Below, piece after piece: positions 51,001 through 64,000 of a DNA stretch of 64,000 bases. The position numbers are program-made. The stretch lies in IMG/VR virus record IMGVR_UViG_2877245776_000006; one strand, 5' to 3'. The stretch is from a virus (taxonomy: Duplodnaviria; Heunggongvirae; Uroviricota; Caudoviricetes). Position 1 is the stretch's first letter; each line of letters opens with the position of its first letter.

Positions 51001-54000
51001 ACACTGACGGGGTTGGTTTAATCCGCTTTTGGGAGGTTTTCGAGGCCTCGGCGCGGAGTATAGTCAGTATTGGACGCAGTCGTCAACCATCGCCGTTTCT
51101 TTGGCTGTGTCGAGGGTGAGGTGGTAATCCTTGCGGTTGTGACCGCCTCTACCAGATGTTTGCTTTCCCAAATTGGAAAGCAAAATATAGTCTTGATTTT
51201 CAATGAATTCGTATTCTGAAATGCGATTTGTAATCCATGCCGCAAACACCTTTTTCACGCCTAAAAAAGCATGCAGATCGCGGGCATTGCAGAGTAGGGC
51301 TGTTTCGTTGTCGATAGTGCCGTTGAATACGGGGATGAGTTGACTGGTCATGATGACCTCCTTGTAAGTTTAGTTAGCTCAACCAGTTAGTAGCTGGTTG
51401 GTCGGGTGTCAACTGAGCCTTACAAGAAGCTCTGGGCATATTCCCCTTACGGGTATTGTATTACGCCTCTCCACCCGACCTTTGTACGGATGTGACTATG
51501 CCGCATTACGGGCATAAAAAAGCCGCAAAGCTATCGGGTGCGGATGACCGCTTGTAAGTTCAGTGCGGTCAGTATGCGATAGCTCTGGCGGATTTGTCAA
51601 ATCGTGCAGTAACATCCTTTTCTTCCTTGCCATTTCTCAATGATGACAAAGGGTGGATTCGGATTGGTATTGGGACAAAAGTGAGACACACAAAGCTTTG
51701 CATCGGCTTACAAAGCTTTGCATGTTTTTCAATGTTGGGACGTGTGAGCGCAGAAATGACGGGCTATCTAATTGATTTTAAACGATACGTAACCAACTTT
51801 AAAATCTTTGCACGCCAGTTCGCAGGTTTTACAGCCAGTACAGCGGCTGGAATCGATAAAAAATCCATATTGTGTGGTCACGGGCTACTCCTTAAACCTT
51901 TTCGATCTGGACAAGATTGCTGTGCGACGGGTTTCCCTTTGCCAGCGGTGAAGGGCGGTGAGAGGTCAGAATATTGATACTGCCGCCGTGATCGACCCGG
52001 TCACCAAACATATCCGCTTTAAGCCAAGCACCTTGCCCGATGGCGGTAACGCCAGGCAGAATACGCGGAGTCACTTTTGCGGCAATCAGCATTTCTCCAT
52101 TATTGTTAAATACCCGCACGGTATCGCCATGACGGATACCGCGTGCCTGAGCATCAATGGGGTTGATCCACACCTCTTGTGGGCAGGCCTGCTGTAACAC
52201 ATCAATATTGCCGTAGCTGGAGTGGGTACGCGCTTTGTAATGGAAGCCCGTTAACTGCAGTGGATAGGTTTTCCGCAGGGGATCGTCCCAGCCATCAAAA
52301 CCTGGGGTATACGCAGGAAGGGGATGAATAACTTCATCTTTTTTCAATTCCCAGGTATCCGCAATCTTCGCCAGTCGTTCAGAATAAATTTCGATTTTCC
52401 CCGAAGGTGTTTTCAACGGGTTTGCCTGTGGATCTTCACGGAATGCGCGGAAAGCGACGTAGTGTTCTTCCGGGCATTTTTTCTTAAAGATCCCGGTCGT
52501 TTTCATCTCCTCGTAGTCGGGCATCTCAGGGTTACGTTCCTTCGTTTTCGCATGGAGATATTTGATCCATTCATGCTGACTGCGACCTTCAGTAAAGGTT
52601 TGATAAACGTCTGGTCCTAAGCGTTTGGCGACTTCACTCAGCATCCAGTAGATGGGTTTGCGTTCAAATTTTGCTGAGGTTGCGGGTTGGGCGAGGATCA
52701 CATAGCCCATATTCCCTGCAGATTCATGAGAGATAAGGTCTTCTTGCTCTGTTGGCATCAGGTCGGGCAACAGGATATCGCAATACTTAGCCGAGGCCGT
52801 CATGAAGTGGTCAATGCCAACAATCATCTCGCACTTGCTGTCATCCTGAAGCACCTCATGGGTGTGATTGATGTCGCCATGTTGATTGATCAATGTGTTA
52901 CTGGCGTAGCACCATAAAAACTTGATGGGGACATCCAGTTTTTCTTTTCCACGAACACCATCACGGGTCGGGTGATGCTGCCAACTTACTGATTTAGTGT
53001 ATGATGGTGTTTTTGAGGTGCTCCAGTGGCTTCTGTTTCTATCAGCTGTCCCTCCTGTTCAGCTACTGACGGGGTGGTGCGTAACGGCAAAAGCACTGCC
53101 GGACATCAGCGCTATCTCTGCTCTCACTGCCGTAAAACATGGCAACTGCAGTTCACTTACACCGCTTCTCAACCCGGTACGCACCAGAAAATCATTGATA
53201 TGGCCATGAATGGCGTTGGATGCCGGGCAACTGCACGCATTATGGGCGTTGGCCTCAACACGATTTTACGTCACTTAAAAAACTCAGGCCGCAGTCGGTA
53301 ACCTCGCGCATACAGCCGGGCAGTGACGTCATCGTCTGCGCGGAAATGGACGAACAGTGGGGCTATGTCGGGGCTAAATCGCGCCAGCGCTGGCTGTTTT
53401 ACGCGTATGACAGTCTCCGGAAGACGGTTGTTGCGCACGTATTCGGTGAACGCACTATGGCGACGCTGGGGCGTCTTATGAGCCTGCTGTCACCCTTTGA
53501 CGTGGTGATATGGATGACGGATGGCTGGCCGCTGTATGAATCCCGCCTGAAGGGAAAGCTGCACGTAATCAGCAAGCGATATACGCAGCGAATTGAGCGG
53601 CATAACCTGAATCTGAGGCAGCACCTGGCACGGCTGGGACGGAAGTCGCTGTCGTTCTCAAAATCGGTGGAGCTGCATGACAAAGTCATCGGGCATTATC
53701 TGAACATAAAACACTATCAATAAGTTGGAGTCATTACCAAACGGTTGAAATGTATGCCGCTACTTACGGGTCCTGTAATCCTCTGAATAAACCAGAGGGA
53801 AAAGATGATTTCGACAAAATTTACCGCTTCTTGGAGGACCGCTATATCAAAAGCTTAGAGGACGCAGGGATCAAATCCCCAGTGAAGTCACCATTGTCCT
53901 GAGAACTTGCAGAACGTCATGATCATAACTTCCATCCAAACCGCGACGGCGAATTGCTTCTCGTATTACCGGAAGCAGTTCGCTGGAAATCTCGGTGCAT

Positions 54001-63000: not shown

Positions 63001-64000
63001 TGGCGTGGGGATCTTATGCATGGTTTGCTTCTGAACCGGAGCACTTAATTGATCTTCGGGATGGTTATCCGGTAAAGATCAGCCAGAGAAAATGACCAAA
63101 GTTTGATATCCGCCACGCCCTGAAGGATGGGGGTTTTACGGTGCACTGGATAAAAAATCGGTTTCATAGATTTGCCCACCGTGGTATACGCCTGCGATAA
63201 AAACTTTATTGTCATCAACGGCAAAAGCAATAATTGTTCTGTGGCGGGGTGATGCTGCCAACTTACTGATTTAGTGTATGATGGTGTTTTTGAGGTGCTC
63301 CAGTGGCTTCTGTTTCTATCAGCTGTCCCTCCTGTTCAGCTACTGACGGGGTGGTGCGTAACGGCAAAAGCACTGCCGGACATCAGCGCTATCTCTGCTC
63401 TCACTGCCGTAAAACATGGCAACTGCAGTTCACTTACACCGCTTCTCAACCCGGTACGCACCAGAAAATCATTGATATGGCCATGAATGGCGTTGGATGC
63501 CGGGCAACTGCACGCATTATGGGCGTTGGCCTCAACACGATTTTACGTCACTTAAAAAACTCAGGCCGCAGTCGGTAACCTCGCGCATACAGCCGGGCAG
63601 TGACGTCATCGTCTGCGCGGAAATGGACGAACAGTGGGGCTATGTCGGGGCTAAATCGCGCCAGCGCTGGCTGTTTTACGCGTATGACAGTCTCCGGAAG
63701 ACGGTTGTTGCGCACGTATTCGGTGAACGCACTATGGCGACGCTGGGGCGTCTTATGAGCCTGCTGTCACCCTTTGACGTGGTGATATGGATGACGGATG
63801 GCTGGCCGCTGTATGAATCCCGCCTGAAGGGAAAGCTGCACGTAATCAGCAAGCGATATACGCAGCGAATTGAGCGGCATAACCTGAATCTGAGGCAGCA
63901 CCTGGCACGGCTGGGACGGAAGTCGCTGTCGTTCTCAAAATCGGTGGAGCTGCATGACAAAGTCATCGGGCATTATCTGAACATAAAACACTATCAATAA

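Follow-up and report, generated by a model that had tools for sequence, protein, structure and literature searches.

Stepwise deletion at insertion sequences as the very probable origin of an IS1-flanked Qin-site prophage remnant in Shigella sonnei

Direct repeats of the insertion sequence (IS) IS1 around a cargo are the layout of the composite transposon Tn9. Within Shigella, IS1 is the most abundant IS and has expanded recently in S. sonnei (PMC7373316). Genes are known to be lost in Shigella through deletion between homologous IS copies (PMC7373316, Hawkey et al. 2020), and scars of IS-mediated deletion and of IS x IS recombination were described in its genomes by Yang et al. 2005, as cited in PMC7373316. 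The present analysis concerns a stretch of 64,000 nucleotides from IMG/VR record IMGVR_UViG_2877245776_000006 (hereafter the window), in which two direct IS1 copies, the second running into the window end, bracket a 9.5-kb segment. It is highly probable that this segment belongs to a lambdoid prophage that was integrated at ydfJ (the Qin site) and has since decayed, with IS-mediated deletions on both sides, each IS1 copy being a deletion scar.

The locus resembles the described Shigella IS scars in its expanded IS1, in the absence of target duplications and in flanks that come from non-adjacent ancestral DNA, as well as in what was lost, namely metabolic genes (ynfEF, rspAB) and the antivirulence gene speG. 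It differs from them in nothing of kind; what is added here is a reconstruction at the level of one locus, with intermediates preserved and with independent recurrence. With the cryptic prophages Qin (and Rac) of E. coli K-12 it shares the ydfJ site next to ydfI, a defective state, a ydfA/DUF1391 gene, a dicA/racR-type repressor with a divergent cro-like gene and ydaT, and a toxin-antitoxin (TA) pair of the RelE/ParE type. Unlike these, it carries a PstI-type restriction-modification (R-M) system and a second parE/parD, and its decay is bounded by IS1 on both sides and reaches into chromosomal genes. The likeness to K-12 Qin is presumed here, the tested comparison being the ydfJ'-ydfI neighbourhood in E. 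coli 1EC213. Tn9, finally, has the same direct IS1 pair around a cargo and the same intact-looking outer inverted repeats, whereas the present locus has no outer duplication, a native cargo, a single genomic location and flanks that derive from deletions. Events of this kind are known, the locus has been sequenced before (the S. sonnei reference strain Ss046 has the arrangement), and no new kind of element or mechanism is revealed. Its value is as a clean worked example of how IS1 and IS600 trimmed a prophage and its neighbours, step by step, to a 9.5-kb stump.

The features that define the two junctions are as follows.

51797-51881, minus strand: 5' remnant of ynfG; homology to Ss046 begins here, and the right edge (attR side) of an adjacent Shiga toxin (Stx) 1a prophage lies at about 51797
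51892-52970, minus strand: ynfF', the 3' 358 codons (of 807) of a selenate/tellurate reductase gene, cut at the IS1 edge
52971-53738, plus strand: IS1 copy 1, complete, 768 bp, with insA at 53026-53301, the insB' frame at 53220-53723 and an A6C frameshift site at 53275
53739-53747, no strand: AAACGGTTG, the surviving right half of a 9-bp target duplication of an insertion here called IS1y; ATCC 29930 and the form-A strains retain the two halves (see below)
63136-63247, minus strand: parE', the 3'-terminal 36 codons of another ParE-family toxin gene, for a protein of 103 amino acids (aa); the 5' part and the parD antitoxin gene are deleted
63248-64000, plus strand: IS1 copy 2, of which the first 753 bp are visible and the window end cuts the rest; 768 bp in relatives

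Copy 1 has the length of an IS1 and imperfect terminal inverted repeats of about 23 bp, in which left and right ends match at 18/23 positions. It encodes InsA (91 aa) and an insB' frame of 167 aa joined by the A6C -1 frameshift motif TTAAAAAAC, and in relatives these genes match the Pfam families PF03811, PF12759 and PF03400 (InsA zinc-ribbon/HTH, DDE_Tnp_IS1). The 9-bp target duplication is the one IS1 character that is missing: the left flank is CACGGGTCG and the right flank AAACGGTTG, exactly as the initial annotation gave them. The insertion that contributes the right flank, IS1y, does lie between two copies of AAACGGTTG in ATCC 29930 and the form-A strains; therefore the element is an IS1 and the loss of the duplication is secondary. 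On the other side, the reading frame of ynfF' is open up to the IS1 edge and covers positions 466-798 of 798 of the NCBIfam YnfF profile (E=1e-219), which bears out the earlier description of a truncated dmsA/ynfF-like gene. The gene is intact, with 807 aa, in S. sonnei ATCC 29930 (L021).

Between 51797 and 64000 the window differs from Ss046 (CP000038.1) by 2 mismatches in 12,204 bases, and the window is Shigella sonnei DNA. The initial annotation had proposed that the left junction arose by IS1-mediated deletion or recombination rather than by simple insertion, and had advised a comparison with related genomes for the ancestral arrangement. S. sonnei chromosomes were accordingly gathered by exact-protein look-ups and their IS1 junctions were read directly, giving 17 S. 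sonnei records among 34 fetched loci. The comparison reveals four structural forms of the locus.

Form C, ATCC 29930 (CP026802.1, L021; strain name from PMC9430107): intact ynfF, ynfE'-IS600-exo', DUF1482, dicB, a first IS1 (IS1x), 1,244 bp, IS1y, segment
Form A, L015, L017 and L020 (three records; three more are A or C): IS1x between CACGGGTCG on its left and AACCGGAAA on its right, with the IS1y duplication kept
Form B, the window, Ss046 and 8 further records: a single IS1 between CACGGGTCG (the left flank of IS1x) and AAACGGTTG (the right flank of IS1y)
Form D, CP032523.1: a single IS1 between AACCGGAAA, towards dicB, and AAACGGTTG

Form C is the arrangement from which the others can be read. 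Its two IS1 copies are each flanked by a perfect 9-bp duplication (AACCGGAAA for IS1x, AAACGGTTG for IS1y) and are separated by 1,244 bp of an ant gene fragment. Relative to form C, form A lacks 5,196 bp, and the left flank of IS1x is now the ynfF sequence CACGGGTCG. Form B has lost a further 2,012 bp, which is the 1,244-bp spacer plus one IS1. Two copies with duplications in ATCC 29930 and, on the IS1y side, in form A thus stand against a single hybrid copy in the window and in Ss046, as expected of a scar of IS x IS recombination; copy 1 is by its flanks a hybrid, joined on the left to the flank of the outer ancestral copy, IS1x, and on the right to that of the inner one, IS1y. Because unique DNA cannot be regained, the order runs from C to A to B, with D arising separately from C. 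The identical ynfF breakpoint in forms A and B indicates that B was derived from A, and the flanks of form D indicate that recombination between IS1x and IS1y occurred a second time, independently. The earlier proposal of IS1-mediated deletion or recombination is supported, and the sister genomes that hold forms C, A and B resolve it into steps. The four forms could also serve as lineage markers.

The proposed history begins before the IS1 insertions. In ATCC 29930, homology to E. coli O104:H4 extends from ynfG' through ynfF into ynfE and ends at an IS600, beyond which lies a truncated prophage exo (L021 reverse-complement coordinates ~4189-5452). Compared with E. coli, this junction lacks ynfD, ynfC, speG, ynfB, ynfA, rspA and rspB together with the int/xis end of the prophage. 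A deletion bounded by IS600 would thus have fused ynfE' to the prophage exo, with loss of ynfD-ynfC-speG-ynfB-ynfA-rspAB and of int/xis, and the IS600 junction apparently marks where the S. sonnei deletion of speG and the genes around it ends. S. sonnei has been reported to lack the whole speG locus (PMC3213128), and an IS600-bounded loss fits that report; no description of these boundaries was found in the same paper. That speG is among the lost neighbours gives the junction some wider interest, the loss of this gene being a known pathoadaptive trait of Shigella.

Two IS1 elements would then have inserted 1,244 bp apart in the early-left region of the prophage, each generating a 9-bp duplication (AACCGGAAA at IS1x, AAACGGTTG at IS1y). 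In the second step, a deletion of 5,196 bp starting at the left end of IS1x would have removed dicB, exo', IS600, ynfE' and the 5' part of ynfF, placing IS1x against ynfF at about codon 450 and erasing the older IS600 junction in the lineage of the window. In the third, homologous recombination between the direct repeats IS1x and IS1y would have deleted 2,012 bp and left the single copy 1 with mismatched flanks. All of these states occur in sequenced genomes, while the mechanisms that join them are ones that we infer. For the transitions from A to B and from C to D, homologous recombination between direct repeats would account for the loss. For the second step, intramolecular transposition of IS1, producing an adjacent deletion, is the most likely mechanism.

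Copy 2 agrees with copy 1 at all 753 comparable bases (0 mismatches) and has the same orientation, as the initial annotation had claimed. An identity over 753 bp cannot be chance, and reflects the recent expansion of IS1 in S. sonnei (PMC7373316). The right flank of copy 2 lies outside the window and is taken from relatives. All 15 S. sonnei records that cover the junction, including Ss046, have CTGTGGCGG on the left and CATATAACA on the right, with no duplication. CTGTGGCGG is parE sequence at about codon 68 of 103, from a gene that is intact, with 103 aa, in L001 and L008. CATATAACA lies 40 bp past the ydfJ stop and 48 bp upstream of the ydfI start, and the order to the right of copy 2 in S. 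sonnei relatives is 48 bp followed by ydfI, ydfZ, ydfH, ydfG and dcp. For the window's own genome, our model predicts that base 64000 is followed by 15 more IS1 bases, then by CATATAACAAAACAT and ydfI. In an intact prophage CTGTGGCGG and CATATAACA are tens of kb apart, and copy 2 is therefore also a deletion scar. The event would have joined parE at about codon 68 to the ydfJ-ydfI spacer, with loss of parD, Q, the lysis and head/tail genes, attR and ydfJ'. An exact scan for the parE'-IS1 junction in a species-representative genome collection gave no match, which is explained by its single genome for each species.

A third IS1 lies outside the window, about 8.2 kb to the right of copy 2 (L004, 20226-20993). 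It has the same orientation and again no target duplication (TATCTCCGTTCA / CAGGCGGAAGTC), and stands in place of the E. coli 1EC213 genes mgtS, ydeE and onward. Since this copy also lacks a duplication, all three IS1 copies in the 30-kb neighbourhood are interpreted as rearrangement scars.

The segment between the two copies contains the following genes.

53871-54236, minus strand: hypothetical protein of 121 aa, prophage early-left region
54248-54454, minus strand: DUF1391/ydfA-like gene, prophage early-left region
54680-54970, minus strand: ParE/RelE-family toxin
54970-55164, minus strand: PaaA2/RelB-type antitoxin
55184-55714, minus strand: helix-turn-helix (HTH) repressor in the cI/RacR position
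55769-56059, plus strand: cro-like HTH gene, divergent from the repressor
56056-56481, plus strand: ydaT-family gene
56547-57617, plus strand: replisome organiser (O-like)
57624-58370, plus strand: DnaC-like helicase loader (P-like)
58374-59117, plus strand: DUF1627 gene
59118-59555, plus strand: DUF977 gene
59556-59969, plus strand: hypothetical protein of 137 aa
60184-62016, plus strand: N6-adenine methyltransferase (M) of a type II R-M system, full-length open reading frame (ORF)
62013-63095, plus strand: BsuBI/PstI-family endonuclease (R) of the same system, full-length ORF

The TA, immunity (repressor/cro), replication and R-M genes attributed to the segment are thus all present, and the term prophage-derived can be made more precise. 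The segment is colinear with the intact lambdoid prophages L001, L008 and L013, with which it has the order DUF1391-repressor-cro-ydaT-O-P-DUF977-M-R-parE-parD-DUF968-rusA-Q-lysis-terminase in common as far as it extends. In L001, from E. coli FDAARGOS_943, the prophage continues to the left into dicB-exo-xis-int and to the right into parE-parD-DUF968-rusA-Q-lysis-terminase, and the stretch from ydaT to the R-M pair has 96% nucleotide identity with that of the segment. E. coli 1EC213 has lambdoid prophage tail genes followed by ydfJ' and ydfI at the corresponding place. From the colinear gene order, the ydfI neighbour and the tail genes-ydfJ'-ydfI arrangement of 1EC213 it follows that a ydfJ-site prophage sits in its native place, and the segment is accordingly the early region of such a lambdoid Qin-site prophage, in native position and orientation next to ydfI. 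No integrase, late regulation, lysis or structural genes were found between 53739 and 63247; with its colinear order, native site and orientation and these missing functions, the segment has all the characters of a defective lambdoid remnant. The label in the initial annotation is therefore retained in a narrower sense, as an in-place lambdoid remnant at the ydfJ/Qin site.

The gene order at 54680-55714 deserves a separate remark. The HTH gene in the repressor position is co-oriented with the PaaA2-type antitoxin and the ParE-family toxin genes, in the three-component layout paaR-paaA-parE. By analogy with that layout, the prophage immunity repressor may double as a TA regulator.

Several points weigh against a history of deletions on both sides. 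The order of the structural forms comes from parsimony (lost unique DNA) and not from a strain phylogeny. At copy 2, the right flank in the window's own genome is taken, by sequence likeness, from near-identical relatives, and there is no intermediate of this junction, all 15 covering records having it in the same state; either an adjacent deletion or IS1 x IS1 recombination could have formed it, and either flank could be the original target. At copy 1, an adjacent deletion in the second step would leave the same traces as recombination with a third IS1 once present in ynfF. This last alternative, in which step 2 was homologous recombination between IS1x and a further IS1 located in ynfF, would leave the overall picture unchanged, and we consider it somewhat unlikely. 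Recombination between IS1 copies has been demonstrated at this locus at least twice (IS1x and IS1y), and IS1 is dense here, with three copies in 21 kb; yet an IS1 in ynfF with a CACGGGTCG duplication was present neither in the 34 fetched loci nor in the species-representative collection, an absence that counts only weakly, and an adjacent deletion requires one event fewer.

A very improbable reading is that IS1, segment and IS1 together form a Tn9-like composite transposon that was inserted as a unit or is actively mobile. The initial annotation suggested that the segment could move in this way, and the structure invites the suggestion: a cargo lies between two identical, intact-looking direct IS1 copies, of which the first retains both inverted repeats, insA/insB' and the frameshift site and the second is a full 768 bp in relatives, although its outer end is seen only there. 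The outer flanks, however, are CACGGGTCG and CATATAACA, which is no duplication; the cargo keeps the gene order of an intact prophage and adjoins ydfI, the native neighbour of the ydfJ-site prophage; and the left junction was built in place by deletions, as the sister genomes show. The segment occupies one locus in all 17 S. sonnei records, and more than one genomic context was not observed. A plasmid search for the segment gave only partial lambdoid matches, the best with 33% coverage and none with at least 80%, and among complete E. coli genomes compared with window positions 50500-64000 none reached 80%, the best being 47%. Movement as a unit is structurally possible and is not supported, and the suggestion of a mobile composite is set aside on these grounds. 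The 9.5-kb piece is a leftover that never moved from its original place and did not arrive as a unit.

That the form with one IS1 was produced in assembly, by collapsing two IS1 copies that have their duplications, is extremely improbable: IS copies are classic sites of assembly collapse and some related records (JBEAA... accessions) carry scattered frameshifts suggestive of long-read errors, but 1,244 bp of unique ant sequence would then have had to disappear in the collapse as well, 9 independent records, among them the finished Ss046 and several complete chromosomes, agree on one IS1, and other complete chromosomes resolve the two-IS1 form.

Given a remnant formed by deletion in place, it is conceivable, although rather unlikely, that the 9.5-kb piece persists because it is "addictive", in that an intact PstI-type R-M system and an intact ParE/PaaA2 TA pair would kill cells that lose the segment. 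The 1.2-kb spacer, which has no such genes, was lost at least twice independently by recombination of a like kind. That the breakpoint at copy 2 falls within the second parE, with parD lost, would fit a selective filter of this type: deletion of parD with parE left intact would presumably be lethal, and the breakpoint position may reflect that filter. Loss of the segment by recombination between copy 1 and copy 2 was never seen in the complete genomes sampled, which are a small sample, and the absence of a ynfF'-IS1-ydfI junction is weak evidence for retention because most S. sonnei assemblies break at IS1.

An argument for selection from the intactness of the R-M and TA genes was considered and rejected, since one of the look-ups was made with the exact R protein and is biased towards an intact endonuclease, and since S. 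sonnei is a young clone, in which intact ORFs say little.

The IS1-flanked region is the standard S. sonnei arrangement, and the Stx1a prophage has its right edge only 1.2 kb away. Window positions 1-25000 have 100.0% identity to Shigella phage 75/02 Stx (KF766125.2), and bases 1-51796 are Stx1a phage 75/02, a complete-looking Stx1a-converting prophage with the following toxin genes.

11076-12032: stxA, Stx1a subunit A, within the Stx prophage
12042-12311: stxB, B subunit, within the Stx prophage

The integration of the Stx phage in ynfG, its published site (PMC5447701), accounts for the end of homology to Ss046 at 51797. Other S. sonnei records (L019, CP049185.1; L031; L032) have related but non-identical prophages of the 933W type at the ynfG site, and the right arm of the prophage in CP049185.1 is 94-99% identical to the window. 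Several independent phage acquisitions have been reported in the literature, and the non-identical prophages at the ynfG site are consistent with that.

The Stx phage and the remnant have replication modules (O, P, DUF1627, DUF977; 1063-3480 in the phage, 57155-59530 in the remnant) that are 72-83% identical, with 2.3 kb in common, 56 kb apart and in the same orientation. Through these modules the toxin phage and the remnant might recombine. The closeness of the locus to the Stx1a phage edge, together with these shared replication genes, makes it relevant to the assembly and typing of Shiga-toxin-producing S. sonnei.

The tail region of the Stx prophage includes an ORF of 745 aa (27576-29813) with long collagen-like Gly-X-Y repeats, which are visible in the DNA as periodic repeats of 9 bp and 45 bp at 28356-29374. 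Near its right end, the prophage has part of the ant/antA antirepressor region duplicated in tandem (50555-50826 and 51083-51363, 74-93% identity). A 48-nt inverted pair with a terminator-like hairpin, 96% complementary, is found in the Stx prophage at 7871-7918 and 50164-50211, 42 kb apart, with a weaker 119-nt inverted pair beside it at 7604-7722 and 50360-50478.

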